Origin: Glaucostegus cemiculus
Taxonomy: Eukaryota
NCBI GenBank assembly: GCA_976551045.1
Contig: CDPCPM010000281.1
Coordinates: forward strand, 9,734,001 to 9,798,000
Direction of reading: 5' to 3'
DNA: 64,000 nt
Every line of letters starts with the position of its first letter. Position 1 is the first letter of the stretch. Shown in pieces: positions 6,098 to 61,515 of the stretch. The notes beneath the pieces were generated by a model that saw only the letters and a list, made by a program, of their open reading frames with translations, was not told where the DNA came from and made no database searches. The position numbers were made by a program, and so were the translations under genes.

Positions 6098-6196
6098 TGG
6101 ATGTTGGAAATATGAAATAAGAACAGAAAGTGCTGGAGACCCGCAGCAGGTCAGGCAACATCTGTGGAGAGTGAAATAAGAGTAAATGTTTCAGGG
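6098..6196 (-). mobile_element. Penelope-like element terminal fragment
   Basis: gtgctggagacccgcagcaggtcaggcaacatctgtggagag, the same motif family as 25860, 26880, 44660 and 61345. Confidence 0.6.
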
Positions 6197-7699: not shown

Positions 7700-8690
7700 A
7701 CAGGGATTCACAGAGAATTAATTGTGCAAAAGTGGATATAGGTCGCAAGTATCAGAAGGGAGGCTAAGGGCATTGTCAAAGCATTTGAGGAAAGTAGTCA
7801 GAGAGCATAAGGAATATAGGGAAGAAGTTCCTGAATGTTGAGCCTAAAATGCCGATGGCATGCCTCGTGAAAAGAAGGGCAGATGTACAAGAGTCCAGAG
7901 CTGGGAGAATATTATTCAGAGTGGGGAGTTTGCACAACTGGAAAAGTTATTACAGAAATTAGAGGAGTGGGTCTTTATGGAATTTCAAAACAACAAGACT
8001 TTAACTTGGAAGTATTGTGAGGTGAAGAGTCAATGGAAGCTTGCGGGGAGAGAAAAGATTGGTTTGCTATTAATTAGGGCATGAGTGGCAAAGTAAGGGA
8101 GGTCAGTCAGAAGAGTATTGTAATAGGGGAGAGGCTGCAGATGAATGTGAGACGTGCAGTGTGTGATATTATCAAGGTGGTTGTATGCCATTGTTATGAT
8201 GGTGAAAGTAAGGGTTGGTAGCCTAGTTTGAACTTAAGTAGGACCCTTGGTGGCAAACAGGCTGATTTTAGCCTGAAACAATGATTGGACAGAGGAACAA
8301 CTTTGGTGGCAGATGTATGTGTGGACTCTGGTAATGGCTTTGGTCTTTCTGTTGTTTAACTGAAAGGAATGGGGAACACATTTTACTGTAGATGTATTGG
8401 CTGTGACTTGGTATGTAGATTACACCTTAGCGATGGAAGTCCCCTGGACTTGGAGAACAGATGAGGTGCAGTGGAGGAGAATGACAATTGTGTCAAAGGT
8501 TGCTGAGAGTTCAAGGTGGAATAATGGATCACTGGTAACAAAAAAAAAGTTTCTACCTCTCTTCAGGGCCATTTTGGTGGTGGGGGATGAAGGAGACTCA
8601 ATTGATACGGGAAATATTGATTTGAAGAGGATGCAGGGACAGTTAAATCTTGGAGGTTGGCAGGGACAGAGGGGTTGAGAATAGATTTAT
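7700..8690 (-). mobile_element. Highly degraded L2-like LINE
   Basis: Purine-rich + strand. The reverse complement of about 8160-8205 resembles the L2 ORF2 motif ITKTAYFHLRNIA. Confidence 0.45.
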
Positions 8691-10049
8691 CCAAGAAGTA
8701 TGACCAATGTTACACCATAAATGAACAAGTGTGAAGAAAGGATACGTGTAAAGTTTACAACGATAAAAGTTTGGTGTAAATTACATTAATTTTACTTTTA
8801 AGTTGAGATTATTTTTGCACGAAGGTGTAAAATGATGTGCCAGGAGGGAAGTGCTGCTCCACATTAATACAACTGCTGCACATTTGCTTATGGCCTGAAC
8901 TTTCTCATCCTCGTGTGTACTTGCACAAAAGGGAGAAAGACCTCGGCTTGATTGTATTGCACAAAAAAAGGAAGTATTGGTTGTTGCTTTTGTTTGAATA
9001 CTGACTAAAAATATATGAGGTATCAGAATGGAATAGGAACACGATGTGGAAAAAAATATCTGCTATTCCTTCATAAATAATGGAAGCCTGCAGAGCTGCA
9101 CAGAAATGATAGTGGAAGTGAGACAGATTATGGTGGATGTGGTTAGGCCAGGGAGTCAAAAGTCTATTTATCTTGCCAGGTTATTATGCTGATAGTTTTC
9201 CTTGAAAAGAATATGGACTCATTTGAGCCAAAAGTGGCTTGATATGAATTAATGATGGATGAGAGAATTGCCAGGTTTAGAAATATTGATCGATCACAAG
9301 AAGCCAATGCTCCATTGTGGAATCACAGCCATATTTTTCTCCCTTTCTCTGGCCCCTTTCTATATAAGAAGTGTAACCTGCTGATATTAAAAGAAATGTC
9401 ACAAAAGCTGGCATACATCTATTTTATGCCTTATCAATCTCAGAAATGTCTCAAACGACTTCATCTGCATTGGATGGCAATGGCTTTCACTATGCCAGTA
9501 AATTCTATTGTGAATAATACAGAGAAATTATACATTCTATCATAGACCCATTCACAGGTTGAAGTGAACTATGCCTTTGAGATATTTGAGTCAGATCTCT
9601 TCTAATGTAAATTACTGTCTGACCAAGCTTTGATGTCGATTATATTATAAAATCCGTGGCGTGATTTTCTCATAAGCATTTACTAACAACGTTCCTTGAT
9701 GTACCTATGATGTAGTTTATAGCGATCAGCAAATTTACGATTACTAACACTGAACCAGGACCAGATCATATATTGAATATAAAAGGTAACAGGAGATGTT
9801 CAGTTGCTTTGTTTGTATGTGAAGTGTCTGGTTTGATTGTGAATGTCACTAATTGAGTGGAGTAAGAATTGATAAAATTCAAGCTTAGTGAATGAAAATC
9901 AATTTGTATTCCCAGCAGGTGTCCTTATTAAGTTCAGTCTATAAGATGAATGGGCTTGGACATGAGATTATCGTCAGACTGGGCTCAGTTTTGAAATCAA
10001 GGAGAGAGGAGTAACTCACTGAGTAACACATTTAGTGTGTGCCTGAGGT

Positions 10050-10382
10050 TCAGTGGGAGAATTCTCATAGCTGGAACCAAAAAGTTGTAGTTCCAATCTC
10101 CATTCAAGAAAGCCTTGGCTAACACTTCAATGCAGCATTGAGGAGGGCTACAAGGAGGGATATGCTGCTAATTTGTCTGAGGGGCCTTAATGTGATACTT
10201 GCTACCTGAGCTGGATGTACAAATCCTGTTCCGCTACTTTGAAGGAAAGCAGCAGAGTTATCCTCAGTGCCCTGACTAGTATCTGTCTCTCAGTGAACAT
10301 TTCTGGTTAAACATCACGTTGGCATTTGTGTATTCAATATTTTTAAAGCAATTAGGAACATTGACGGTACTATATAAATGTG
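10050..10382 (+). mobile_element. Old Deu-SINE-like element (SacSINE1-like)
   Basis: ggatgtacaaatcctgttccgctactttgaag...agagttatcctcagtgccctgactagtat core and ctatataaatg tail. Related to 18630-19290 and 53945-54280. Confidence 0.55.
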
Positions 10383-10964
10383 TGTATTACCTTACCTCAT
10401 GCTGTTCTGATTTATGGTCAGTTGTGTTAGTTTATGCCAGCAAGGTCCCACAAATGTTAATGAGTTAGATGAACAGTTAATCTGTTATGGGCATTGCTGA
10501 TTGAAGAAGGAATGTTGGCCATTCAAGGGTCAGCCATGATTATGAGCTAAAGTACTGTGGCTGAATCCAAAATATTCTGTTTTAGCTGTGACTGACTTCT
10601 CAGCCAATCAGACACATCAATACAGTTTGGAAAATAATTGCTGTCTGGTATTACATTGTAAAAAGGCCACTTCACTGAGATTCTACAGAGTGCTGACATT
10701 TACAACCATCATAACCCAATGTATGTCAGTATTTGTACTGCAATGAATGAAAAAATAGAAAGGGAAATATGGCTGCGGAGTTGAATTGGTTGATATTCTT
10801 ACAGTATTTCTGAGGTTTGTAAATTTGTGAGATTTTCCTGCATGGGTATAGTGATCATTGCAGCCATTACATTGAATTAATACCTGGTGTAGTAAGCCTT
10901 TTCTGGTAAATTAATTGAAAAAGTAAATCCCTTGTGAAGTATTATTGACCTTATTGATATTGAA

Positions 10965-11330
10965 GAGGTGATCTTATTGAAATGTGTAGGATTCCTACAG
11001 GGCATGATAGGGTAGATGTTGAGGTGTTTCCACTGATGGGAGAATCTTGAATGAGGGAGGCATAAGTACACGATTAGAGGGTGGTCTATACTACCAAAGT
11101 TTGGAAAGCAACTTTGGTGCTTTCCAAAGCACCAAAGTTGAGGTGCTTTGGAACTTCTCACAGAGGGTGGTGAATCTGTGGAATTTTCTAGTCCAGAAGA
11201 TTACGGACACCAGATTACTGGGAGTATTCAAAAAGGAAAGAGGTACATTTTTGAGAAATCAGGGAGTTGAGGGCTATGTGGATCTGGCATAGAAGAGATG
11301 AAATCTGGGACAGGGCAGCCATGATCCTGT
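10965..11330 (+). mobile_element. CR1 LINE 3' fragment
   Basis: Translates NFSQRVVNLWNFLVQK...LGVFKKE. Ends near cagccatgatc. Confidence 0.7.
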
Positions 11331-14300
11331 CATGTATTCAGTATCAGTCTCCTTGGGATGTCCCGATCTACCTCTTGTGCCAAAACCAACTTCCTGGCAA
11401 CTGGCTAATGCTCTTCACAGCAGGACACATCAAAAGCCTAACCTTAACCTCAGCTTCAACCTTGCAGTGCACATGCTCCCTATTTGCAGCTATTAACACC
11501 CCAAACACTGGTCTCGTTCTTACAGGTAGACGCTCAATAAAAATGATTTACTTCCATCATACACACAAAGGTAGAGGTTGCAGAACAAGAACATGCTCAG
11601 TTGGCATGTTCCCGGCAGGGCAGGCCTGAGGGGCTGAGTCACCTACTCCTGCTTCTATTTTCTTATGTTCCATGTCATTATGTTCTGTGGCCCATGGCCA
11701 GACAGTGTTGGCTCTTTCATATGACCCAATTGAAGGAAGTATGGCAGATTTGGTCTCTTTGATTGGTGGTGTGGTTTGAATCACATTGATGTTGCATTCA
11801 TTGGGAGCTTAGTTTATTTTTTTGGCTAAATTTTGTCTTGACAGATGCAAATCTAAATATAGAAGAGGCAAAAGTAAAACTAGCTGCCAACTGAGCATGT
11901 TCTCATTCTGAAACACACATTAGTAAACCCAAGAGAGGGTGGCGTTACCCCAGGTTAAGAATCTGCAAAGGATTGTTGATGTCTGAGCTTCTTCCTGAAA
12001 TGGCAGTTGATGCTGGTTCATTTGTTAATTTTATCTGAGATTCATAGATTTTCATTAATTAGAAAGACATTTATTAATCAAAGACATTGAAGGATCTGGA
12101 ATATTGTACAGCAAGTTAGGTCAAAATTTCATTGAAAGACACAGATTAAATTCTGTTAAAAGGCAACTGGTGTTTCCATGTTCCCAACTTCCTGCAGGGG
12201 GACTCTCAGAGTCTGGCTGAGGATCCAAAATGGCTTTGTTCACCTCTCCAATCTACTTGTTTACCTACAATGTGACAAATGGCACATGCTTCCGTGGAGC
12301 ACTGAAATGAAGGAAAAGACATAGTTGATAAATATACTGATTGTGATTCATACAAGGCTGCTCCAGTTCTGAGTCCTCTACCACCAGAGAGCAGGAAACA
12401 ACTCCCTTGAAGTTGTATTTTACCTAACTGCCAATGAAGAATTCTGAAACTAAGAAAATGATTGATCGGTGGGAAATCTAATACCTAGTTACATTCCTAC
12501 AATGGCCAATCCTCAAACAAAAGCAAGAACATGGACTGCAAGCAGGAATATCCTGGGAATGCCCAATGGCGTTTTAAAAAAATACCGGTTAACCTTTGCA
12601 AATGTAGCCCTTTGTTGGGATGGAAAGCTGGAAAGTAAGATTAAAGGACCAAGAGGACAAATGTGTACAAATCACAAAGGGGATGTTACTGGGTTGGATG
12701 ATCTGCTAAGCATCTAATAGCAAAGTAATACACCAGTAGTGATTTAAAACAAATCAGCTCACTCTGGTAATTGCAAAGGTATTAACATGACAGGAACAAT
12801 ATATGCAGAAAGGTGATGGATGACATTGAGGGTGAAATTGCAGAAGGCATATCAAGAAATCTTAAAATATGAGAAGCACAGCTCGTCTTCCAGTCTCGCA
12901 ATTGGAGAAGGAAAACTCGGCCTGTATCCAGACTTTGCCCTCACCTCCACTCACAGAACTCCAGACTGATTGAAAATAACATTGGAAAATTCTCCCTTCT
13001 ATCCTCCGCCCCCCACCCCAAAGATGGACACATCCCACCCCCCCGGCAACACCTTTTATAAAGGAAATGGAAGATGTGGGTCTGAAGGTGTTAGGAATGC
13101 AGGAGTGCCTCGGAGAAAGTCAGCAGTGCATAGAGAAATTCAAAGAGAGGTTGGAATTGGAATGAGGAGTGCACGTTGAAAGGGTGAGCCGCAGAGACAG
13201 AACCATGTTCAACAGGGTTCTTAATTCAGCATTTAGTAATTTTTTTGAAGGAACCAACATGGATCAAGATCGACAATGGTGAAAGTGTGAACACTAATTA
13301 AATCATCACTGCGCTGATTGTTCATACACTTCTTGACCCTGTTCTGTTCACTGACGTGGCTGCTTTGAAGCCCAGATTAGCGGTGAATATTCAGGAAACC
13401 AGTTTACCCACCTATTCCAAAGCTGATTTATTTGGTACTTGCCTTTCAGAATGTGTTGGCTGTGATAGAATGTTGTTCCTGGAACCTTGACTGAAGCACT
13501 TCTCACTAAACACCAGAGGTGGAGTCATGATTAATCATTGCTGGAGAAATCATCGCTCCTTGATTTATCACAGTTTAGTTGTAACTTAAAATCCTACACT
13601 GTTTCCAATATTTATCACATCTTTATTTCATTTTGATGGTAGCTGGCAGCTCCCTGAGCATTAGTAGCCAGAAAAAACAAAATTCTTGCAGCAAACACAG
13701 TTTCAGCACCCTAAGGAATATATTAATGAATGTTCTAATGCATGGGGTTAGCTGTACAGTTCATTGATTTACTACTGTCCTCTCAGAAGCTCAAGTCCTT
13801 GTATACTGAAGCCAAACACTTGGGACTACCTTTTTGTTAAAAAAAAGGGTTTGCTGACACTTGTCTCTTTGTATTTCTTGATATGAGTCATTTGGCGCTG
13901 CATTTGGGAGCTGGCTGACCTAGGTGGTGAATAATGCCATGCCTGTACCGATTACATCATATGGTCGGCTAAGGTAGGACTTGCATGGTGCAGGGAGGAC
14001 AGGTTCACTTGATACTGTATCAGGTGAGTCAATGGTTATCCTTGTCCCTCCACGCTGACAGATCACTTGCTCCTGGTAGGGTGAGGAAGGCTCTGTAGTC
14101 ACAAGGGTTTAAAGAGGCAACCTCTATTATTGAGTCATCAGGGGTCTAGTGAAGATGCACCTTTACTTTGTACAAGATACAGTCAAGACAATCTGTGGGC
14201 TTTGTTACCAGTTAGCCATCTAAAAACTGGTCCTGTTTAACACTTCTATTAGAGTCCAAAAAATATAGTGCAATAAAATCCAGACAGAACCAAATCACGG

Positions 14301-14449
14301 CTGTTCTCTTCTTGTTAATATGGTGTAATCTCCAGTGGGATTTCTGGTGCTTTTCTGACTTAAGCACATGAAGGACTAAATGTGCCACCATATGGGAAGA
14401 AAGAAATGGCTCATCCCTTGGTTTATAATTGAAGAGAGAGGCTACTCTC

Positions 14450-15460
14450 TGTTCTGCAGATGAAAATTGGCTTGACTGACAATAGAACAACATTGTATTA
14501 ATTTCAGGGATCATGACGCCTGCTTGGGAAATTTAACTCCTAATTTTTTTGGTGGGATTTTAATTTGTTTTCTTTATTCATTGTTTGAAATTAGGTGTTG
14601 GTTGCAAGACCAGTATTTATTGCCCATTTGCAATTGCCTTTTAACTGGAAGAAAGCCATTGCATCTTGTTTGACTCACCAATCCTTTCCCCTTATTCCTG
14701 AATCTTTCTTTCTCTTCCAAGTATTTTTCCACTTTCTTTTTGAAAGTTATTAATAAGTTCATATTTGTCATCCTGTTATTCCAAATCTTAACTATTCATT
14801 CCATTAGCAAAATGTTATTCCTTCCATTGCATCTGATTCATTCCCCATTCATCTTGAATTCATGCCCTTTCATTGTCAACTCTTAAGTTGTTATAAGCAG
14901 TTCTTCATTATTCTATCGAAATCCCTTATGATTTTAAATACCTCTATCGCATTTCCTCACCATTTTCTAAGTGCAACCCCAGTTTCTCCAGTTTGTAACT
15001 TTAATCCCAATCTAGTCACTTCCCTTTGTTCTCTCTCCAAAGCCTTCATATCCTTCTTAAGAGCGGTGGCCAGAATTGAACAAAAGCTCTGGCTGAAGCC
15101 AACCTAGTGTTTTACATTGCCACAATATTCTGCTTTGTGACTACAATAAATCTGAAATAAAAACATGAAATACTGGGAACATTCAGTGATCAGGCAAGGT
15201 CTCTAGAGAGAGAAACAAAGTTAGGTACCTAGTAATTCTTTTGCACAACTCCAAAGAAAAAGTGTTCTGCAGATGAAAATTGGCTTAACTAAGAATAGAA
15301 CACCATTGTATTAATTTCAGGGATCATGGTGCCTGCTTGGGAAACTTGACTCCTAATTTTTTTGGTGGGATTTTAATTTGTTTTCTTTATTCATTGTTTG
15401 GAATTAGGTGTCGGTTGCAAGACCAGTATTTATTGCCCATCTGCAATTGCCTTTTAACTG
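14450..15460. repeat. 198-bp direct duplication (14450-14647 and 15263-15460) around a 615-bp spacer
   Basis: Hand alignment is ungapped with about 11 mismatches in 198 bp. Confidence 0.9.
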
Positions 15461-15861
15461 ACTGGTTACTATGCCATTTCAGGGGGTGTTTATGAGTTAT
15501 CTACAGTGGTTGGTTTGGAGTTACACATTAGCCTGACTGGCTAAAGATGTTCTGAAGAACATTAGTGAAGTAGAGATCTTTCGTGTAGGCTTAGCATAAC
15601 TGAACCATTTGAGAGGACAGACCTTTCACCTAATATTGTCAAGAGAAAGCCCTCTGTCAGCCTTGCCACTGCTTCATACTGTCCTCCAAAAATGAAGGTT
15701 CAAGGCAAGGCTCTGGAAAATGTGGACCACTGAGTATCTTAGAAGCCACCTCTTAATGGTGGTGATTAAAGTCACCATCGCCTTCAAAGTACCAGCACAG
15801 TTTATGGTTCTTTGAGGAAACTGATGTTTGAAGATTAAAACTTCAAACCTACACAAAACTC

Positions 15862-16272
15862 ATAGTCAAAGTCGAGTTTATTGTCATATGCACAAGTACA
15901 TGTATGCAAAGATGCAGTGAAAATCTTACTTTCAGCAGTTTTACAGTACAGGCACACAGCATCATATAAGTGGCATTCACAAGAATAACATACATTAAAA
16001 ATTATGCACAATTTTTGACAAGAAAGTAACACAATTAGAAGAAAACAAAAGTCCATTTTAGTGCAAAGTGACCAGAGCGGTCATACTGTTGCTAAACAGT
16101 AGTGGTGGTTAGAGTTTTGGCACTTGGTTCAACAACTGAATGGTTGAAGGAAAGTAGCCGTTCCTGAACCTGGTGGCGTGGGACTTGAGGCTTCTGTACC
16201 TCCTGCCCGGTGGTAGCTGTGAGAAGATGGAATGGCCCGGATGGTAGGGATCTTTGATGATGGATGTTGATG
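15862..16272 (-). mobile_element. Rex1/Babar-like LINE 3' fragment
   Basis: The reverse strand encodes SIIKDPYHPGHSIFSQLPPGRRYRSLK..TRFRNGYFPSTIQLLN. Tail gacaataaactcgactttgact. Confidence 0.75.
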
Positions 16273-16354
16273 ATAGTCCATTGAGCAGCAGAGATCCCTG
16301 ACCCCCCCCTCCCCACGTGCTTCTGAGACCTGGATTAATTACAGCAGGCTCTCA

Positions 16355-17065
16355 GTTGAAAGATACCACCAGTGCAGGCTCCGCAAAATCATCCAAATCC
16401 ACTGGAAGGAGAAGGGAACAAGCATCAGTGACATCGCCAAAGTCAACACCACCAATGAGAGCCTTGTTATACTCGGTCAGTGCTGATGGGTAGGCCATGT
16501 CATTCATGTGCCCAATACCAGATTCCCAAAATAGTTAGACCAATAAACAATCTTCTGGAGGAATTCAGCAGGTCAATTAAGATCTGTGAATGTTGACAAT
16601 TCCTTTCCCCCCACAGATGCTGCCCGACTTGCTGAGTTCCTCCAGCGGATTGTGTGTTGCTCTAGATTCCAGCATCTGCAGTCTCTTGTGTCCCAAAATA
16701 GTTACTTTATTCCACTCCCCATCCCAGGAACAGATGATAATGTGGACAGAAGAAAAGCTTCAAGGATGTGCTCAGAGCCTTTTTGAAGTTGCAACAAGCC
16801 CACTGTCTCCTGGGCATCTCTGGCTTATGACAGTTCAAAGTGGAGATGGAGCATTTGGGATTTTATTGAGAGCCTTGAGTCTACACGTCAGGAGCAGACA
16901 GGAGCCCAACGTAAAGGGCAAAAGGAACGCATCACCTCACAACCTATGCACCAGCCTGCCCCATCAGTAGAAGAGACTGTGGTTCTCACCTTGGCCTCGT
17001 GAGTCATCCAGAACCTATACAACTGGAGTGGGTATAAGTCTTCATACTGAGAGACTGTCTATGAA
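16355..17065 (+). mobile_element. Degraded RTE-like LINE 3' fragment, interrupted by a Penelope-derived inverted-repeat element (about 16545-16695)
   Basis: Remnants of RKIIQIHWK and WVGHVIHVPNTRFPK. The insert has arms ctggaggaattcagcaggtc and gacttgctgagttcctccag. Confidence 0.55.
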
Positions 17066-20029: not shown

Positions 20030-20752
20030 AGACCACTTTAACGTTTGCTGGTTCATTCTTTCACCTCTACCAATCACTCCACTTCTCACAGAACTTTTCA
20101 TGCAACTGAGGGTGAATCAACATCTGCCCTTTTATCCCTTTTTCATCACCCAGGGCCCTAAACATCCTTTCCTGGTGAAGCAGCAATTCACTTGCACTTT
20201 TCTTCAACTTAGTATGTTGCATTCAGTGTGTACAATATGGTGTCTTCTGCATTGGAGAAACCAATTGCAGATCAATTGACTGCTTTGCAGTGTACTTCAG
20301 TTCAGTCCACAAGGTTGACCCTGCGCTTCAAGTTGTCTGCCTCTTTAATTCTTCATCTCATTCCCTCTCTTGATCTATCTTCCAAGCCATCCTACACTGC
20401 TCCAGTAATGCCCAATGTAAGCCTAAGGAGCACTTCATGTTTCATCTGAATGCATTACAGTCTTCAAATCTAACAATTCCAGGAAATTTGTGGCTTGACT
20501 TCCATATTTCATCTAGTTTCCTCATTTCTTTTCTGCCTGTAATTGCCTATTTTTAAAGAAATTGTTACCTTGATAACTCTACACCTATCACTGACATTGC
20601 CTCACAATTGTCACTCCACCCATCTGCTTCCTGCAACTTCAAACGTGGTTCCTTTCTCACTTTTCCAGTTTTGACAAAGAACCATTGATGTGAAACATTA
20701 ACTCTGCCTTTCTCTCCATTTCAGGTTTCCAACATCTGCTGTTTTGTTGCTT
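20030..20752 (+). mobile_element. Penelope-like element 3' fragment with decayed GIY-YIG endonuclease
   Basis: GPKHPFLVKQQFTCT, then frameshifted LV-C-QC-Q-GVFCIGET (GIY-YIG-type). A terminal segment follows with a decayed hammerhead motif at about 20667-20704. Confidence 0.7.
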
Positions 20753-25256: not shown

Positions 25257-26864
25257 GTAAGAACTTGAAATTGTTTTTAGCACTTTGTATGTGCTCTGAA
25301 GATACTGAAACTCCCCTGAAAAGCTGTAACAACCAAATGTACTGATTTCCAACTTTGACTCACTTTATACTCAGTTTGGTTGAAATGAATGAATGAATTC
25401 AGCAGTATGTGCTGTGTGAATATTCCAGTGTGAGGTAGTCACATTTGATATGATCGTACATGTTGCACAAGTGAGGAAAATGTTACTCCAAATATAAATT
25501 TTGTACGATATAAAAATATTGACATGAACAGTGATGAAAACAGAAAGCTGTCTCAAAAACAGGCAGCGGTAACTAGGACTAGTGCATATTGGATACCAAA
25601 TGCATAATTTGTAGTGCTCGATGAATACTTCCCCAGTCTCCTCAAATGAGACAATGCTGTCATTATATTAAGGAGATGTGTGAAGTATTGGAAGGAATAT
25701 ATATATTGAAGAGATATTTGAAAGGTGCTTTTGAAAATAAATAAACCATCAGTCTTGCATGAAACACCCCCCAGATTGTTTAAAAAAATAAGGAAGGAAC
25801 TATCAGAGGCTCTGACCATCATCTTTCAATCCTGTCCAGCTACAAGCAAGGTACTGAGCAGAAATACTCAGCAGGTCAGGCAGCATCCGTGGAGGGGGAA
25901 ACAGAGGTAATGTTTTCGGATGGGTGACATTTCACCAGAAGCTTTCATCAATACATCTGTTCAACAGAGCGGGTTTTTATTTCACTTGTGGAGCTCTGTG
26001 AGGCTCCATGCTGGGTCCCTTACTTTGGGAAATAACTTATTCTTAAGTGTTGTGGATTTACCCTTAGATTCATGGATGATAGAAAATTTGGCCAGACTAG
26101 AAGTTTGTTCAACCATTTCCTCCGCAAAAATGGTGCTGTGCTTTTGAAAAGCAAGTTAACCTGAAGTCTAGCAATTTTGCCACATTTTGGTGTGCCTGTC
26201 ATTCATCAGCTTACTGCCTGGTGGGATTTTCATTCTCCCAAGCACTTTTAACAGTGTAAAACTCCAGAGAAACATGCAAAATTCATCTGCAGTCTCACTG
26301 GTCTGAAAAATTACTTCTCTTATTTACTCAGAGAATAGCCGAGTTTTACAGGCCCCATTTCCCTGAACCTGCTATTTAAAGAGGCAGCACTCAAAATTGT
26401 ATTTTGTTTTAAACCAAGATCCCTATCTTCTTTGACCTCAAATACAACTTCACACATGTGCCTAGACTGTTTTGCCTAAGGAGATAAAGACAACGGTAGT
26501 GATCACCTTCCAAGCCTCAGGTTCATTCCAGGTTTCTGCTGCTTGTTTCTACCCCAACTCACTGCCACATTGAAAGTCATCCATACTTCATCTACCTTTC
26601 CTTCAGCCTATGGGCACAGATGCATTGACACAGACACTTAGCTGCTACACAGGCTTCCCCAAAGTGCAGACAGTCAGATATAGCATTCATGTCCTTACTG
26701 AATTCTTCCTAGCAACTTCCTGCCTGGAATATCTCTGTGGCCTTAGTCAAAAAGAATATGATTTTGTACACTTTTCTACCAGCCTGTCCAAATCTCCGTG
26801 AATCCCTTCCCTCAGTACAGCATCCGTTCATTAAGTGACGTCACTTCCAGTAACTGGAAGAGTA

Positions 26865-27020
26865 TTGCTCAAGCAGCAAAGATGCTGGAAGAATGCAGCG
26901 GGTCAGGCAGCATCCATGCAAGGGAGTGGATTGTTGATGTTTTGGGTCAAGACCCCACTGAGTTCCTCCAGAACCTTGTGTGTTGCTCCATATTCCAGAA
27001 TCTGCAGTCTCTTGTGTCTC
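26865..27020. mobile_element. Penelope-derived short inverted-repeat element
   Basis: Arms gatgctggaagaatgcagcgggtcaggcagcatc and ctgagttcctccaga...tctgcagtctcttgtgtctc. Confidence 0.65.
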
Positions 27021-42333: not shown

Positions 42334-42429
42334 TTGTTTCATTCCTATCCTCCGTCCATGGCTGGAATTTCTCCCATGATTCCACCTACAGGTCCTTTTG
42401 GTTCTCTGCAAGGAGCGTTTCAGCCAAAG
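42334..42429 (+). CDS. AUTS2: AUTS2 coding exon (exon 11 equivalent), 96 nt
   Basis: Acceptor ttcttttccacag|, donor AAG|gtaacc. Encodes [32 protein letters not shown]. Confidence 0.97.
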
Positions 42430-42954
42430 GTAACCCTGAAATCTCTTTGCCAATATCTTTTTCTTTGCACTCCTGTTTTTTCAATGTTAAGCATTGTCAG
42501 TCATCAAAAGCCTGGGAACTGTTGTTGCTTGGATCCTGAAGTGAGGTGAATCCTGGTACCCTGAGGCTTCATGGGCATCATTTCCATGTTTTGAACTAAT
42601 CTTTCAAATCACCTAACGAGGAAAGATACTCGGTAAACTCTCTGGATTTGGTGAAAGGGAAAATCTGGTACTTGGAGCACATTCGTACTTCGACTACTGT
42701 GATGAACAATGAACTCCTCGTACCCCACATAAGAAGGTTAATTGCATTATGTCCTCACCGACATTCCTGCTCTCATTTGTATTTCAATTACTGTTAAAAC
42801 TAAAGTTTTGCTTCTCTGAAGCATTGGTATTTGTGCATCTGCTTCAAAAGTGTATAAAATTGGAAGCAATTATCATTTGCAAACAATGTAATTGTAGAAA
42901 TGGGTTTCCTTTAAAATGTCAAGTAAAAATGTGTAAGGAATTGGGGTAGTAATA

Positions 42955-43290
42955 GCAGGAGGTGGGGGAGGGGTGTGGTGGCAGTGGTGGAGGGTAGGTG
43001 GGGGTGGTGGAGGGTAGGTGGGGGTGGTGGAGGGTAAGTGGGGGTGGGTGGCAGTGGTGGAGGGTATAGGGGATGATGGCAGTGGTGGAGGGTAGGTGGG
43101 GGTGGTGGCGGTGGTGGAGGGTAGGTGGGAGTGGTGGCAGTGGTGGAGGGTTGATGGGGTGGTGGCAGTGGGGGTGGTGGAGGGTAGGTGGGAGTGGTGG
43201 CAGTGGTGGAGGAGGATGGCAGCATGTGTGTGGTGATGGTGAAGGGGGGATCTGTGGTTGGGAATGATGGCAGCAGGTGGAGGGGGGAGG
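42955..43290 (+). repeat. G-rich degenerate minisatellite
   Basis: Repeated gtggtggagggtaggtgggg and gtggtggcag units. Confidence 0.9.
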
Positions 43291-44649
43291 TTATTATCCC
43301 TGAACCCTTTGGAGAATCAGGGAATTTTGAGTAGTACAGCACAGCCAATCCGTCTGTAAACCATCAGAAGGCACAGTGAGATTTAAAAGTCAATGCGGTT
43401 TTGAAGCAGTGCAGGTAATGGATCAGTTATCAGTTATTCTCTTGCTCTGTGTTCCTACTGTTATGTAATTACTGTACATACTTGTCAATAAATAGGGCTA
43501 CTAGTTTTATTCAGGTGCTGGTATTTTAGGGGGAAAGGGCTTGGAGATGTGGTGGATCCTACAGATTTTAGGGGGAAAGGGCTTGGAGATCCTACAGATA
43601 ATGAAATAACAACCAAAAATGCTGAAATGTCCACTAGGCCATGCGGCATCTGCGGAGACAGAGGAGCTGAGCTAATATTGCAGGTGGATGACCTTGCATT
43701 AGAACCGGTCAGTCCTGACTCAAACAGGAAAGTACAGGATATGATGCATAGCCTCGATACTTCCCAATACATTCCTCGATGAAAGGGTAATGGTTAGGCG
43801 CAACTCATGTTTCATTCACAGCCTGGTGACAGTTAAGGATCTTGCTTCTGAAGAAACACTGTTCAGCAGTTAGTCAGCTCTTTAGGTGAAACATGTTGTA
43901 AAAAGGCCAGAAATGTAACAGCCACATTCGGTTCATATCTTAACATATCTCAATGTGATCTATCTGAAAAGAAACAGAATATGTATTTTTGACTTATATC
44001 TTATAAACCATTTTATTTGAAGAATGATTCAAGGATCATCTTTATTTTATCATGGGGATATGTTACTTTATGCATCTAGTAATTTTCTGAGTTTTACCAA
44101 GTCAGTTGGAATGCACAGAATCTTTTCAGAAAATTGTCCCACAAAAATGCTGCTTCAGTTGTTATACTGTGGAGTAATGCTTCCAGTAACCATGGTGTGT
44201 GATGCGTGACCCACACTTGTGCAGAATCCCAGCTAAATGATGAGTGATTTTGTGATTCTAGGCATAAAAGAGATGTTAAGACCACAAAATCTCTCTTTAT
44301 ATAAATGTCACACTTTGTACACACCTTCCCTAAAGCTTAATATTTCTGTGGCTGTTATTTTTCTGAGTGGCTTTTCTGAGCAATCACATTTTATTCTCAA
44401 ATCCATTATGACCCATCAGTTTTTAAAAACATCCCTTATTTTTTGATTCCAATACAATTTTGACACCCGTTTGCTTCTAGTTTCAATTTTTTTAAGACAC
44501 TTTGGAAATTGTTAAAACAACTGAGAAGCCTGAGCAATAATGAAACTCAAATTTACACTTCCATGTGTAAAGGTTGTTAGCTGAGGAATTCATTATCTGA
44601 ATTCATCCAGTACTGGCCAATTCTGTAAAAGCAGTACCGTGATTGTCAT

Positions 44650-44913
44650 CACACACAAAATACTGGACGAACTCAACAGGTCAGGCAGCATCTATGGAGG
44701 GCAATAAACAGCCAACGTTTCGTGTCGAGACCCTTCATCAGGACTGGAAAGGAAGAGGGTAGAAGCCAGAATAAGAAGGTTGGGAGGGGGAGGAGCACAG
44801 GCTGGCAGGTGACAGGTGAGTCCAGGTGAGAGGGGAAATTTGATTTGCTGAGTTCCTCCAGCATTTTGTGCGTGTCACTCCAGATTCCAACACCTGCGAA
44901 CCTCTTGTGTCCC
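44650..44913. mobile_element. Penelope-derived inverted-repeat element, best-preserved copy
   Basis: Left arm acacacaaaatactggacgaactcaacaggtca (44651-44683) is complementary to tgatttgctgagttcctccagcattttgtgcgt (44841-44873). Confidence 0.75.
44709..44746 (-). ncRNA. Putative minimal type I hammerhead ribozyme motif
   Basis: Reverse strand reads CAGUC-CUGAUGA-A-GGGUC-UC-GACAC-GAAA-C-GUU-GGCUG: both core boxes, stem I, stem II with one mismatch, and a palindromic ACGU in place of stem III. Confidence 0.65.
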
Positions 44914-46137
44914 CATGATTGCCATAACAATATTGATAAATGTAATTAGAACAATTCAATTTTAGTCTGTTTAGTTAGAATAATTCCTGGGATTTACCTT
45001 CTTGAGGGTTAATTTTATTTTTTGGTGGACATTACGTTGCACAAGCAAATATTACAGATACATTCCAGCAATCTGGTCAGAAATAGTGCATCTCTTACAA
45101 GCAGCTTTTATTCTATAGGTATTACATTTCTAACTTTAGAGGATAAATGTACAGTAAACTACAGAAACAGAGTTCCTCATCTACCATTTTAATCCATCTT
45201 ATTGAACTTCCGACATGGATTCTCTTGTGGTTTCTCAGTAAACAATGGGAAATCTCACCACATTCAAATGAATGGTGAGTGGGTTTGTCAGTGTGTTTTC
45301 CCACTGTGTTTCTAATATTGAGATCTGTGTTTAAATAAAGTGCAAATTTTGAAAATCCAACATGAAGAGAGTTTGGACAGTTCTAAAGGTAATTCCATTT
45401 GGCTATAAGTCTGCAGGTATATCACACTCATTTTAATGGTGCAAACAGATATGAAACCAAAGAAAGGGTTGGTTCATATTTTGCCCAAGCCTGCAAGAAA
45501 ATAAGGTCAATGTGGCAGTTGAAGAACTGCTCCGATTCGGTAATTTACCCAAGTCGAGATAAAGTGAAGAGAAAATGGTGTCTTTGTCCCCATAATTTAA
45601 CATTATTTGGACATGTGCTGAAAAGGAAAACCAAAGAGTAGCAACTAGAAAATGTTTGGAGTTCAAGCAGTTGCAGGAGCTTTTTCTGAAAGTGGGATCG
45701 GTACACGTTGTGGATGGTGTGTTGACAGTGTACATGGTTGGCACAGACACAGTGGGCCAAAGGGCCTGTTCTTGTGCTGTACTGTTCTTTGATGGTATTA
45801 TTGGTGTCTTAAATGGGAATTGTTACTTATATTAACATTAGTACTCCTTGTCTCAATTTTGCATGTTTTCTAAAGCAGTGGACTGAAGATGAATGATTGG
45901 TATGATGTTCATACAACAAGCAAAATAGCAGGAGAATCCAATAGTTCCCACACAGGTTAAAAGTGAATAAAAGGCACAGGAATGAGCAGGAAGAAGGTGC
46001 TGTTTCCTCCTCAGAAAATGGCACTTTGTTCTCCTACAGTTGCAAGTCTAAATTAAACATTTCACCTGCTCCACAGAGCTGTCAGAAATTGTTTTCTGAT
46101 CTTCCACTTTAATAGGCTTTTCTATCTTCCTCCACAG

Positions 46138-51451: not shown

Positions 51452-51775
<324 letters not shown>

Positions 51776-53390
51776 TAGTAACACTTTCCCAGTTGTTTCG
51801 GAGCTTTCTTCCAGTGGTGTATTGGGATTTGTTAGAAGGACACTGGAAGGCAGTAATTTGTGGTCCATTGCCGGGAAGTTCCAAACACACTGTGTATACT
51901 CATTGTTTATGTTCTTCACCTCCACACTCCTTGCTGCATTTGATCAAATGTTTCATCACTTCTCTCCCACTTCCCACTGCTGAACATCACAGGAATCCCA
52001 GTCTAGGCCAATGCTTGCGGGCCACAGGGAATTGTATGAAATGAGTTTAGATCATCTCGACCCAGTCTGTCGTGACCATGAATTTATAGAAGGAACTCAT
52101 CATGACACTAGACTAATTTCTCACTGAGATTCTAGAATCATTAATATGGGAAGTCGGTCGTAGTTACAGTAAGGCATCATGTACCTACGTTCAGGCGCAT
52201 TGCAGGTTAGAGTACGGAGGGATTTATTCTGCATTTGGACTGCACAAATAGTATTTAAAGTGGGAAAAGTTTGCTTTCACTCTAATAATGGTCTTTCTCT
52301 CCCTGACCCCATTGTTTGCTTACACTCAACCATGTTGGTTATTCACAATGCTGACAATTAGTGTCTATGAATTCAACTGTGTCAGACGTGGACACATTAC
52401 ACCAAGACCCCCAGGAGTAGAAAACTGTGAGCACTACAGGTTCCAACCAAAGAAAATGATACCTCTGAAGAGTACAGTCCTCTGAAGGTGGAAAGAAAAC
52501 GACACAAAGAAAATTATCCTGTGCCCACTTTCAGTTTAATGCCGTGCAGTTAGAGCCTCATCCCAATATGGGACTATAGTGTTTAGTCCACATCCTGTTT
52601 GTTCCCCTTCTAAGTTATGGAAGATGCTTTTAGAGATTGGTCTAAGCTGATGATGCAGAGACATGAGTTCAAGTACTATTTGGATTCTGGAACATGGAGC
52701 TACCATCAGCATTACTAACCAGGTGATGACTGAATTATCCTAAAAACCCCAAGATATTCCTCAACTTTAGGGAAGGAAACCTGTTTACCTTACTTGGTCT
52801 GGCCTCTGATTCCAGACCCACATCTGTGCTTCCCCTCACCCCTCTACAGGGAGTGAACCCCTCCTTGGACTCTACTACTGACAATTCAAAGTGTTCTCTT
52901 TGTAAAAATAAAATACAGGTTATGGCAGGGTTCTGTTAGTGTGAGCTGTTTGTAACCCAAAATGCAGGTGAGAACCAAGTTCCCACACGGCAGAAGATGC
53001 CTGGGCCTGCAACCCCGCAGCAGCCAGCAAATCCATCCTGAAAGGCCTCCCAAACATTCGTTTGTATATGGGGCCGTACATAAATTGGGTGTTCATAAGC
53101 TGGGGAGGCCCTGTGTGTTGAATTAACCAGAAATAAAGTAAAATGGACTTTATTACTTAAAAATTAGAAGATTTAAGCAACTTTGAATTCAGGTTTGATG
53201 GTACACATGAGTTAGTGGTGAGTGAAGTGTGTTGTTTGTGAATATTCTTTAAAAATTTGTGTGCAAGAATTTGTTCAAATTGCACCTGTCACTCTTCCCA
53301 CTGTACTGACGGTACAGATGGGGAAGGTTTTTGAAAGGAAGACTGAACAAGGAGAAGTGTAACAGCCAGTTTTATGTTCGCCTCTTGCAG

Positions 53391-53532
53391 CAACAGATAC
53401 AGTCAGATCCACACAAACTCGACTTCGGCCTGAAACCCGAATTCCTGAGCAGACCACCAGGTCCCAACATGTTTGGAGCTATCCACCACCCCCATGAGCT
53501 GGCTCGCCCTGCAACCCTCTTCTCCACTGCTG
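53391..53532 (+). CDS. AUTS2: AUTS2 coding exon (exon 15 equivalent), 142 nt
   Basis: Acceptor cctcttgcag|, donor G|gtaagg. Encodes [47 protein letters not shown]. Confidence 0.96.
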
Positions 53533-53944
53533 GTAAGGAAGAGCTGTCAATTGTGTAATTGTCTTCTCAGGGATCACAAGCTGCCAGTGTCTGCTGTTCT
53601 GTGTGGCCTGCAAGTTCCCTGCAACACCAACAGTCCTGTTATCTGTGCAATTACCACTAGATGGCACCATGGGCATTCCCTTTAATTCTCCAGTCTGATC
53701 CCAAACAGTTAAGATACCTTCATGAGTCACACAGTGAAAAGCATCTTTTGCGTAGAGTGTTCTGGGGGCAGCCCACAAGTGTTGTCACACTTCTGTGGTG
53801 CCAACATAGCATGCCCAGAAATTGCTAACATCCCAACCCATACTTACAAGTAAAAAGATACCACTCCTTCCAAGTATATTTATAACTATGTTGTTACATT
53901 TAAAACTATTCACTTTTTGACATGCCTGTATCTGTAAAGAAAAC

Positions 53945-54280
53945 CTTATATTTATAGAGCATATTAAACAGCATCACTGCCAAATACTTTTGAAATGCAA
54001 TAATTGCTGTATAAAATGCTGTAGCCAACTTGAACACACAAAGAATCTGTTTATAGGGATAAATTTGGGCAGGGCAGAATGTTAACTTCCCCCGATGTTC
54101 CAACTAGCAACATTTGTATAAGAAAGCAGTTGGGTCTTCATTTCAATGCTTCGTCTACAAGTCACCACTTCTAGCATTATCACACTCCCTACATCACTGC
54201 ATACTTTAGACTGCCGACTGAGTGTGGAATGAGGTGCTTGACCCCACAACCTCCCACGTAATAAGAGCGCTCCCACCCAA
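53945..54280 (-). mobile_element. Old Deu-SINE-like element
   Basis: Reverse strand has head gaggttgtggggtcaagcacc...gcagtgatgtagggagtg and tail ctataaata. Confidence 0.45.
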
Positions 54281-54707
54281 AATCACAGTTGATACCAACA
54301 ACAAGGCTGAGATAGAAAGGTTTTTTAAAGGAGTCAACAGTTTCAGGGAATAAGTGAGAAGTGGAGCTGAAGCCACAGTCAAATCAACTACAATCTTATT
54401 AACAAGTGGAGCAGGCTTGAGAAGCCATAAAGCCTGCTCCTATTTCTATTTCTTATGTTCTCCTGGATCAATCCTGCAATTAAACTCACAGCTTGATATT
54501 AGATAATGTAGATTGTGCTTAGAGGTAACTATAATGCAATGCTCTCAGTTTCCATTACATCTACGGGAAGCGACAGTTTACACTGTGCTTTATTTCACAA
54601 AGTGGTTCTACAAGCCAAGTTATAGAATGAGGCAGTTTGAAAGGTTTAAGTGCAAGTGCTTCCTTGGAGGAACTCGGCAGAAGGCTAACCATGCTGTTTG
54701 TTTGTAG

Positions 54708-54785
54708 GCACCACACATCCGACTGGAAATCCCTTCGGACCTTCGCCTCATCACAACAGCTTCCTGAGTCCGGCTGCTCACTTAG
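54708..54785 (+). CDS. AUTS2: AUTS2 coding exon (exon 16 equivalent), 78 nt
   Basis: Branch gctaac at 54684-54689, acceptor tttgtttgtag|, donor G|gtaatc. Encodes [26 protein letters not shown] (human [26 protein letters not shown]). Not in the ORF track. Confidence 0.94.
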
Positions 54786-55574
54786 GTAATCATGGCACGG
54801 CCAGTCCGTAGGGAACTCTTGGGTAACCAGTTCACTGACACAAGCAATTCCCAGCAAGTTAGCAACTGAAGTAATGCCTGCTCCGCCAAAGTGTGCATTG
54901 GTTTAAAAGGTCCACATTTGGTGCAGCTGATTCTGTGGGTCTTGCTGCATGTATATTGTAAAATAATAATTCACTATTTCGGGGTATGGTTCCATGAAAA
55001 TCTCAGATTGCATTTAAATACACCTTTCAATGAATTGCTTATCAGTGGACAGCAACCCACAAAGTTAGATAAATTGACTTGCACTGTTACAGATAGAAAA
55101 TGACATTTTAAAAATGTATTTTCATGTACCTCAGCCCTCCCATGACAGCTCGAAAAATAGCTATATACACTCGGTCATAAAGTCGCAGAATGAACCTTGC
55201 CAGATATTCCATCAATGTGATTTGCCCATGTTTATGCTGAAAAATGGTGGTGTGGCAAGGTGGGATGAAGGATTCGATCATCTGTGGTGATAGCCTGCAG
55301 TGGCATGGAGTGTCAGGCGATGGCGCTGTTGAGATCATGGTGTTTCGCCAGCTGGTGTTGCTGCTTTGGCAATTGCCACAAGCATTTCGACAAACATTTC
55401 ACAAGGAACGAGGCATCTGGAGGGAATGTGGGGTGGGGATGCAGGGGAGAGGATTGGCGGAGGTTTTCTTATGGCTTAAAGTAATTCTTCCTTTTAAAGT
55501 TAGAAAAAAGTCCTTGGCAATTTTGAGGCAATTTCAGCTGGCTGCGCAGTGACACTTGCTTTCCTCAGTCATTC

Positions 55575-57065
55575 TACAGGATGCGGAGATTGCTAGCAAT
55601 ATTTTACACATCCCTAATTGCCCCTGAGAAAGTGGCAGTGAGCTGACACCTTGAAACCACTGCGGCCTTGTCTAGCAAAGATGTTCCCATAATGGTGTTG
55701 GGTCGAGAGTTCCAAGATGTTTGGATCCAGTGATGTTAAAGAAACAGCAATAAATAGCCAAATCAGGATGGTGTGCAAGTTGGAGGGGAACCTGTAGGTG
55801 GTGGTGTTCCCAAGCACCTTGTCCACCTTGTTGGTAGAGGTTATATGTCTAGCAGAGGGTTGTGGTGGAGGGAGTGCCCTCGGATTGGAGGGCTGTGACT
55901 AGTGGTGTCCCGCAGGGATCGGTTCTGGGGCCTCTACTCTTTGTTATATTTATAGATGACTTCGATGAAGGAGTGGAAGGATGGGTTGGTAAGTTTGCAG
56001 ATGACACCAAGATTGGCGGTGTGGTGGATAGTGTGGAGGACTCGGAGTTTACAGAGGGATATTGATAGGATGCAGAGCTGGGCGGACAGGTGGCAGATGG
56101 AGTTTAATCCGGAGAAGTGTGAGGTGGTGCACTTTGGTAGGACGAACTCCAGGGCAGAGTATGAGGTAAATGGTAAGGTACTTGGCAGTGTAGAGGAGCA
56201 GAGGGATCTGGGGGTTCATATCCACAGTTCACTCAAAGTTGCCTCACAGGTGGATAGGGCAGATAAGAAGGCTTTTGGGATGTTAGCTTTTATAAATCGT
56301 GGGATTGAGTTCAAGAGCAGAGAGGTGATGATGCTGCTTTACAAAACTCTAGTTAGGCCGCACTTAGAGTATTGTGTTCAGTTCTGGTCGCCGCATTATA
56401 GGAAGGATGTGGAGGTGTTGGAGAGGGTACAGAGGCGATTTACCAGGATGATGCCTGGATTAGAGGGTATGGAATATGAGGAGAGGCTTAAGGTGCTAGG
56501 GCTTTACTCGTTGGAGAGGAGGAGGATGGGAGGGGACTTGATAGAGGTGTATAAGATATTGAGAGGAATAGATAGAGTTGACAGCCAGCGCCTCTTTCCC
56601 AGAGCACAGATGCTCAAGACAAGAGGGCATGGCTTTAAGATATTGGGTGGAAAGTTTAGGGGAGATGTCAGAGGGAAGTTTTTCACCCAGAGAGTGGTTG
56701 GCGCATGGAATGCGCTGCCTGGGGTGGTAGTAGAGGCAGATACGTTGGACAGGTTCAAGAGATTGTTAGATAGGCACATGGAAGAATGTGGAATAGTAGG
56801 ATATGTGGGAGGAAAGAGTTAGATTGTGAGACGTTTGAAGGATGGCACAACTTGGTGGGCCGAAGGGCCTGTTTTGTGCTGTATTGTTCTATGGTTATGG
56901 GTTTGGGAGGTGCTGTGGAGTAGTCTGGGCGAGTAATTGCAGTGCATTTTGGTTACAGTACACACTGCAGCACTGCACAGCAACAGCAGGGCAGTGAACA
57001 TTTAAGATGGTAGATGAGGTGTCGATCAAGAGGGCTGTTCATGCTGGATGGAGCTTTTTGAGTAG
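55575..57065 (-). mobile_element. Old CR1/L2-clade LINE 3' fragment that hosts the young CR1 insertion
   Basis: 55575-55844 and 56893-57065 join as ggtagaggttat|gggtttgggaggtgctg. Antisense to the copies at 57950-58480 and 58870-59930. Confidence 0.7.
55845..56892 (+). mobile_element. Young 5'-truncated CR1 LINE (ORF2 RT C-terminal half plus 3' tail), one frameshift near 56042
   Basis: [16 protein letters not shown]...KFADDTK, then [24 protein letters not shown]...LVRPHLEYCVQFWSP...FFTQRVVGAWNALP, stop at 56820-56822. Tail gggccgaagggcctgt...tgttctat. GGTTAT flanks both ends. Confidence 0.95.
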
Positions 57066-57229
57066 ACAAGCCTGAGGGGTATTGTGGAACTGGTGCAGAA
57101 AGCACAGCAGCCTGAAGGTTGTATATCATGACTTGGCCCCACCAGTCAGCCTTCCTACCACAGAGCAGTGCTTTCAACAGTCAGTTAGAAAGGGAACAGT
57201 TACTCTTTATCATGTAACCTTGCCAGCTC

Positions 57230-57422
57230 TTTTCTCACCCCTCCCCCTCACCTCTTTATCCTGCTTCTCTCCCCTCTACATTCTCAGTCCTGATGCAGGG
57301 CCTTGTTCCAACGTGTCTACTATCCCTTTGCCTGCACAGATGCTGCCTGAGCAGCTGAATTCCTGCAGCAGTTTGTTTTATTTTGCTCCAGTTGCCAGCA
57401 TCTGCAGTCTCTTGTGACTCCT
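57230..57422 (+). mobile_element. Penelope-like terminal fragment with decayed hammerhead motif
   Basis: cagtcctgatgcaggg...cacagatgctgcctgagcagctgaattcctgcagca...ccagcatctgcagtctcttgtg. Confidence 0.65.
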
Positions 57423-61341: not shown

Positions 61342-61515
61342 GTAGATGCTGGAAATCTAAAAATCAAAATAGAAAATGCTGTAAACACTCAGCATGTCCG
61401 ACTGTATCTGTGGGAAGAGAAACAGAGTTAATATTAAAGGGTCTTTGACGTTTTCTTCCCACAGGTGCTTTCTGACCTGCTGAATGTTTCCAACATTTTC
61501 TGTCCTTATTTCCAA
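61342..61515. mobile_element. Penelope-derived short inverted-repeat element
   Basis: aatagaaaatgctgtaaacactcagcatgtc...tgtgggaaga pairs with tcttcccacaggtgctttctgacctgctgaatgtttccaacattttctgt. Confidence 0.65.

Follow-up and report, generated by a model that had tools for sequence, protein, structure and literature searches.

A short non-coding element with inverted arms, located in an intron of AUTS2, carries a hammerhead ribozyme motif on the minus strand. The question raised by this locus, which lies in a 64,000-nucleotide stretch of Glaucostegus cemiculus DNA (the window), is whether the element belongs to a non-autonomous hairpin family that spreads with its own ribozyme, as proposed in a preliminary description, or is a fragment of something larger. 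Our analysis indicates that the element is very probably the 5'-truncated, inverted 3' end of an abundant Penelope-like element (PLE), inserted antisense in the AUTS2 intron, and that the hammerhead is a decaying passenger, likely inactive there.

Insertion in the AUTS2 intron

The element is bracketed by 13-nt direct repeats (44637-44649 and 44913-44925, plus strand), probably a target-site duplication, which match at 11 of 13 positions, a level equalled by 34 of 5000 random flank pairs; the insertion is therefore 263 bp long (44650-44912). Its larger part (44650-44838, minus strand; 189 bp) derives from a Neptune-type PLE, of which it is the 5'-truncated 3' end (pLTR). Over query positions 1-189 this part shares approximately 90% identity with the best genomic copies, and it stops at the pLTR end without a tail. 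It is joined, through the inversion junction, to an inverted second copy of the pLTR end (44839-44874, plus strand), followed by the PLE tail of approximately 38 nt (44875-44912, plus strand), which is present at this end only and, in tandem copies, continues into the ORF start. The inverted arms of the preliminary description are thus real, the left one (44650-44683, plus strand), which is the final 34 nt of the pLTR, being 82% complementary to 44841-44874; however, they are insertion products (see below) rather than the terminal arms of a non-autonomous element. Next to the inversion junction, at 44839-44845, all four positions with C in the family arm are occupied by T, and the other three letters agree; this cluster could be either junction filler or the result of deaminations on single-stranded cDNA.

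Six RNA reads splice from 42427 to 46136 (five in run X1, one in X2, none in X3), and the boundaries become GT..AG once the splice cut is read two places rightward, which defines a 3708-bp intron on the plus strand (42430-46137) with exons seen on both sides. Auts2-family exons were also found on the plus strand at 51482-54823. A second Auts2-family locus is present on a different contig; the top named matches of the exon at 32.8 kb are to AUTS2 (85% identity over 97%), ahead of fibrosin-like 1. With the motif on the minus strand, the PLE insertion lies antisense within a spliced AUTS2 intron, as initially claimed. Since AUTS2 is on the plus strand and its intron spans the insertion, the motif is present in the pre-mRNA as its reverse complement, and the hammerhead, being on the opposite strand, cannot cut it.

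Older relics of the same pLTR end occur elsewhere in the window (57221-57420, 16547-16690, 26879-27020, 25847-25938, 6123-6195, and 61373-61503). The window has one further full-span motif, in the relic at 57221-57420, 12.5 kb away, on the plus strand (sense to AUTS2); its core is broken, A9, G12 and other core letters being changed. A decayed GIY-YIG-like frame at approximately 20240-20380 (plus strand) is probably another PLE relic. There is also an RT-like relic at 55853-56822, presumably from a CR1/L2-type LINE; the intron with the insertion also holds a short repeat of high copy number (45736-45791) that resembles the 3' end of this relic.

The parent family

A genome search yielded at least 4,227 DNA candidates for the element, the best 40 of which were scored. 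The best-scored copies are 89-92% identical and all end at or before query position 190, where the inversion of the window copy starts; none of the 39 other best matches listed passes this position into the junction. Among 30 loci, the sequence shared upstream of this position extends for 0 to 940 bp, and such variable 5' truncation speaks against the proposal of a non-autonomous element with terminal inverted arms. Translation of the longer copies gives the terminal part of a GIY-YIG endonuclease with a Cys linker in front of it, and RT remnants are found further upstream in relatives, which agrees with the Penelope origin suggested from the beginning. The closest relatives of the RT remnants are ray and shark proteins, in line with the assignment to cartilaginous fish, followed by longer RT proteins, some with GIY-YIG; the homologs carry RVT_1 and GIY-YIG domains. 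The window copy contains no RT or endonuclease coding part. In longer copies, the hammerhead motif is located both 3' of the endonuclease and 5' of the ORF start, and in the tandem copies (L137, L138, L130, L143, L123, L129) the pLTR and tail continue into the ORF. At the pLTR-ORF junctions of L137, L138, L129, and L143, a shared long frame seems to start with MPTLKK approximately 110 nt past the pLTR end, a position downstream of the hammerhead.

The number of candidates falls from 3' to 5' along the ORF (27,678 for the endonuclease, 6,017 for the RT start and 255 for the N-terminal part), as predicted by 5' truncation. In several of the 22 long regions, the N-terminal part is followed by RT, endonuclease, and finally the 3' pLTR; every such copy is broken. 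Near-full-length broken examples are L172, L179, L180, and L182; broken remnants of RT and C-terminal GIY-YIG in one order were identified in these four loci and in L185. No intact ORF was present among the matches listed in three protein searches (best 150 candidates scored in each), the longest open frames being 339, 530, and 357 aa; a live master element may still exist in the genome. A Pfam search with four translated pieces gave one sub-threshold RVT_1 match and nothing more. The CX2-5CxxC linker between RT and endonuclease was found in five of 28 endonuclease-picked loci, as well as in L022 and L026. Three other matches to this pattern in the endonuclease-picked loci were unrelated, and a count of 26 out of 27 in full-length homologs was discarded, as the pattern also fits the endonuclease's own cysteines. 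Judging from these sequence features, the family appears to be an endonuclease-bearing PLE of Neptune type, the clade being assigned by the Cys linker, which is also described for the Nematis clade, and not by an RT tree.

Four large contigs were sampled arbitrarily with 16 segments of 10 kb, which contained nine motif-spanning copies; this scales to approximately 160,000 copies (95% range 73,000-305,000; related older subfamilies included). Sampling thus puts the copy number at roughly 10^5. The literature consulted contains no description of the family in sharks or rays, although it may be catalogued in Repbase, Dfam or article supplements. A different study reported that Penelope-like elements are expanded in whale shark introns (bioRxiv 10.1101/443036).

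The hammerhead motif

The minus-strand reading given in the preliminary description for 44746-44709 is exact. The minimal type I hammerhead consists of stem I (44746-44742 with 44713-44709; five pairs, one of them G-U), the CUGAUGA box (44741-44735), an extra A (44734), stem II (44733-44722), the GAAA box (44721-44718), the palindrome ACGU (44718-44715), and U17 (44714), with the predicted scissile bond at 44714/44713, as originally placed. Stem II had been drawn with one mismatch, correctly, but as five base pairs closed by a 2-nt loop, which is below the 3-nt minimum of hairpin loops; GGGU-CUCG-ACAC, with four base pairs, a 4-nt loop and one G.A mismatch, is a better reading. The genome contains 4,168 exact matches to the core pattern fitted by the window copy and two to a reversed control; therefore, the motif is not a chance occurrence. 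An Rfam scan of 44000-45500 (E<=10) returned no hammerhead family, only three weak unrelated matches.

The window copy differs from the family majority at three positions: 44723 (the stem II mismatch), 44714 (C17 to U at a CpG), and 44712 (stem I A-U to G-U), none of these changes compensating another. GUU is cleaved more slowly than GUC. With flank identity of 94.7%, the copy is less diverged than average, and it retains 11 of 11 core letters and the palindrome. Its description as near-intact is accurate as regards the letters, but this state is not unusual: among the 28 nearest copies, nine keep the core and palindrome, and six of these, unlike the window copy, also have all stem pairs.

Monomer fold prediction for the window copy gave no hammerhead (z 0.35), and when the whole element was folded, pair probabilities in stems I and II were below 0.01. 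The double-hammerhead form was estimated at -3.3 kcal/mol for the window copy and -19.9 kcal/mol for an intact native copy, where it lies 13.8 kcal/mol above the best dimer fold of the same RNA. As the folding energies leave out the tertiary core and protein help, and the intact copy is also disfavored, the model neither rules cleavage in nor out. At this site, the hammerhead is likely a decaying, inactive passenger.

Inverted units and the mode of insertion

Thirty-one inverted units were found across the loci examined, ranging from 89 to 1378 bp, with every junction differing in extent. The arms are therefore insertion products and not terminal repeats of a separate family; together with relatives that run into GIY-YIG and RT remnants, this variation argues against the hairpin family initially envisaged. 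The tail is placed at one end only in 27 units, at both ends in two, and is partial in two; in several units the target duplication, of 11-15 bp, is perfect. The 3' ends of copies cluster at two places, the pLTR end and approximately 40 nt beyond it.

Partial tandems, an inverted 5'-truncated copy, a tail at one end, and a target duplication are all present in the family, and the same layout has been described for PLEs (Craig et al., 2021, PMC8557442; Arkhipova et al., 2013, PMC3846280). The reference units in these reports, EN-PLEs of the Neptune clade, share several traits with our family: copies are heavily 5'-truncated and partly in tandem, an inverted copy lacking its 5' part adjoins, one end has a tail of 30-40 bp, and the unit as a whole is flanked by a short target duplication; in the protein, GIY-YIG is C-terminal and a Cys linker separates RT and endonuclease. 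Differences from the units described there are the length of the window unit, which is merely 263 bp and non-coding, the target duplications (11-15 bp, compared to 8-10 bp in the rotifer examples), and the lack of an intact ORF among the copies examined here.

The following sequence of events would produce the window copy. The GIY-YIG endonuclease would cut the target with a stagger of approximately 13 nt, and both target ends would prime reverse transcription, from two start points approximately 40 nt apart, the pLTR end and the tail end. The first cDNA would extend for 189 nt, through the hammerhead, and the second one for approximately 74 nt; joined head to head, they would form arms sharing 34 nt, and only one side would carry the tail. 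PMC11167929 reports two internal sites of RT initiation that delimit the tail; self-priming on an antisense template is suggested in PMC3846280 as another route. Whichever route applies, the arms are products of insertion. As for the ribozyme, published work suggests that in transcripts of tandem pLTR-ORF-pLTR parents two motifs could pair via ACGU to form a double hammerhead, probably aided by the protein of the element; cleavage would be weak, and insertion would not depend on it.

Decay of the motif and subfamilies

We analyzed 142 distinct motif-spanning copies, of which 29 were chosen by likeness, 24 by exact pattern, and 89 not by motif; 56 copies of the latter, unselected set belong to the main subfamily, as assigned by flanks. 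In these main-subfamily copies, G12 is changed in 20 of 55 cases (36%), compared to 154 of 444 (35%) at all motif CpG positions (four CpGs). The core is kept in 19 of the 56 copies, the core and palindrome in two, and everything in none. Copies decay like neutral DNA. Non-CpG core positions have diverged by 6.6%, compared to 9.2% in the flanks (p 0.044 in a pooled Fisher test, 0.29 in a per-column test); this points faintly to constraint, for which the master elements would be the simplest candidates.

The preliminary description would have counted the absence of covariation in stems I and II against its proposal. In 116 of the 142 copies, those free of gaps in the motif, no covariation in these stems was found beyond shuffles on five measures (score 0.143, compared to 0.147 for shuffled data, with 360 of 500 shuffles as high). 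This is expected if copies decay after insertion, and it argues against function of the copies, not against their origin.

Several groups of copies have fixed changes in the motif. In subfamily B, stem I contains a G.A mismatch (13/13 copies); subfamily C has U17, an A.C mismatch in stem I (9/9 copies), A at N7 and CCUG in loop II; and in each of two small older groups A9 is changed to C (2/2 copies). Members of subfamily B (L089, L091, L092, L095, L106, L108-L113, L116-L118) often end in a GT microsatellite. Exact core matches often belong to subfamily C (L094, L096, L098, L101-L103, L158, L166), from which numerous RNA reads also derive. Flanks of subfamilies A and C differ by 20%, while the core boxes and the pairing of stem II are the same in both; of the five motif changes, three fall on the free position N7 and loop II. 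Stem II varies between U-A (78 copies) and U-G (24 copies), and one intact variant of the motif has 117 perfect copies in the genome.

Alternative explanations

The short length of the element, its lack of coding sequence, the inverted arms and the probable target duplication would all be expected of a MITE-like or retrozyme-like non-autonomous hairpin with a fixed structure and a working ribozyme, spreading as a unit, and non-autonomous PLE-derived retrozymes have been reported from vertebrates, one chondrichthyan among them (Li et al., 2026; bioRxiv 10.64898/2026.07.22.740005). Like these non-LTR retrozymes, the window copy is PLE-derived and non-coding, and has a type I hammerhead. However, retrozymes are described there as tandem repeats with the hammerhead in consecutive units, while the window copy has just one motif, carried by an inverted stub, and is related to pieces of a coding element with RT and endonuclease; no direct repeat of the element, and hence no tandem unit, is found in 43.5-46 kb. 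Nor do copies share both ends and a fixed length, as MITE-like elements would: the other best matches listed never cross the junction, and the inverted units vary in length and junction. With stem covariation also missing, this explanation is largely refuted already and we regard it as highly improbable. A role acquired at the locus is likewise very unlikely. Antisense or hairpin RNA from the window copy might regulate AUTS2, or its motif might cleave in trans as a dimer with another family transcript; the core and palindrome are intact, and the arms pair in the predicted minus-strand fold. Three RNA-seq runs (X1, X2, and X3; 18-24% of each used) placed 7,720 to 17,031 family reads per run, on both strands, so partners do exist. 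Yet 186 of the 193 reads at 44712 carry the family letter and not that of the window copy, and therefore derive from other copies; 98-99% of reads placed on the element continue into unlike sequence, and its unique flanks have zero or near-zero read depth. Moreover, AUTS2 pre-mRNA bears the reverse complement of the ribozyme, and all three changes in the window copy weaken the structure or stay uncompensated. No pile-up of read ends was seen at the cut site, either at the window locus or in an intact family copy, a weak test given the insensitivity of fragmented RNA-seq.

A different doubt concerns the parent: the motif may not be a ribozyme even in master elements and may persist as a part of the pLTR involved in protein binding, RT start or promoter function. 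The fixed uncompensated changes of subfamilies B and C and of the two older groups would fit this possibility, as would the report that ribozyme mutants left in vitro insertion of an anole element unaffected (PMC11167929). On the other hand, core boxes and stem II pairs persisted between subfamilies A and C in spite of the divergence of their flanks, most of the A-C changes in the motif spared paired and core positions, stem II alternates between U-A and U-G, and the intact variant is present in many perfect copies. We consider a ribozyme that is dead in the parent unlikely, though deserving some weight; the verdict on the window copy, a decaying fragment of a PLE 3' end, is unaffected.

Comparison with known systems

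Minimal hammerheads (min-HHR) were described in pLTRs of metazoan PLEs by Cervera and De la Pena (2014; PMC4209133), single motifs being inactive and dimers weakly active. The sequence features listed in that work are found in the window motif, which supports its initial classification as a minimal type I hammerhead: CUGANGA and GAAA boxes, U16.1 and H17 (U in the window copy, C in the family majority), A at 44734, G44733 with C44722, palindromic positions 15.2-16.2 (ACGU, 44718-44715) without a stable helix III, and location in a PLE pLTR. Helix II is shorter, with 4 bp compared to 7-8 bp in the Schistosoma example, and copies of our family do not covary, unlike the families presented there, which are full of covariation. 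The abundance, 4,168 exact cores and approximately 10^5 copies by sampling, is equal to or higher than the 4,000 given for coelacanth and 9,000 for frog; no shark or skate term occurs in the text consulted of PMC4209133 or in one supplement.

The Poseidon-clade element PAc from green anole (Frangieh et al., 2024; PMC11167929) resembles our family in the position of the hammerhead near the pLTR-ORF junction, in two preferred 3' ends bounding the tail, and in the absence of RNA-seq read ends at the cleavage site. However, the ORF of PAc begins inside the hammerhead, while the frame of our family apparently starts well past the pLTR end; PAc was tested biochemically, and our family is known here from sequence and RNA reads.

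The window element is real, but an ordinary and likely dead member of a known PLE hammerhead type; the locus, one among thousands of similar stubs, is of little import in itself. The family could be of wider interest. Possibly, though this must be considered doubtful, it amounts to a natural experiment, in which some 10^5 hammerhead ends include subfamilies that spread with fixed uncompensated ribozyme breaks, so that transposition in vivo would not need cleavage, and where the one-tail rule within a single target duplication would record twin priming from two internal RT starts in a Neptune-type element. Biochemical demonstration of two such starts in the published accounts available is so far limited to the Poseidon element (PMC11167929), and the family supplies a large sample of insertion junctions for the two-start-site model. 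It also supplies native variants (intact, stem I mismatched, and core-broken) for addressing the purpose of PLE hammerheads. Intact motifs are unevenly distributed: nine of the 100 listed perfect copies are located within 1.5 Mb of one contig (C172, 0.65-2.2 Mb), which may reflect either low CpG decay in this region or a local burst.
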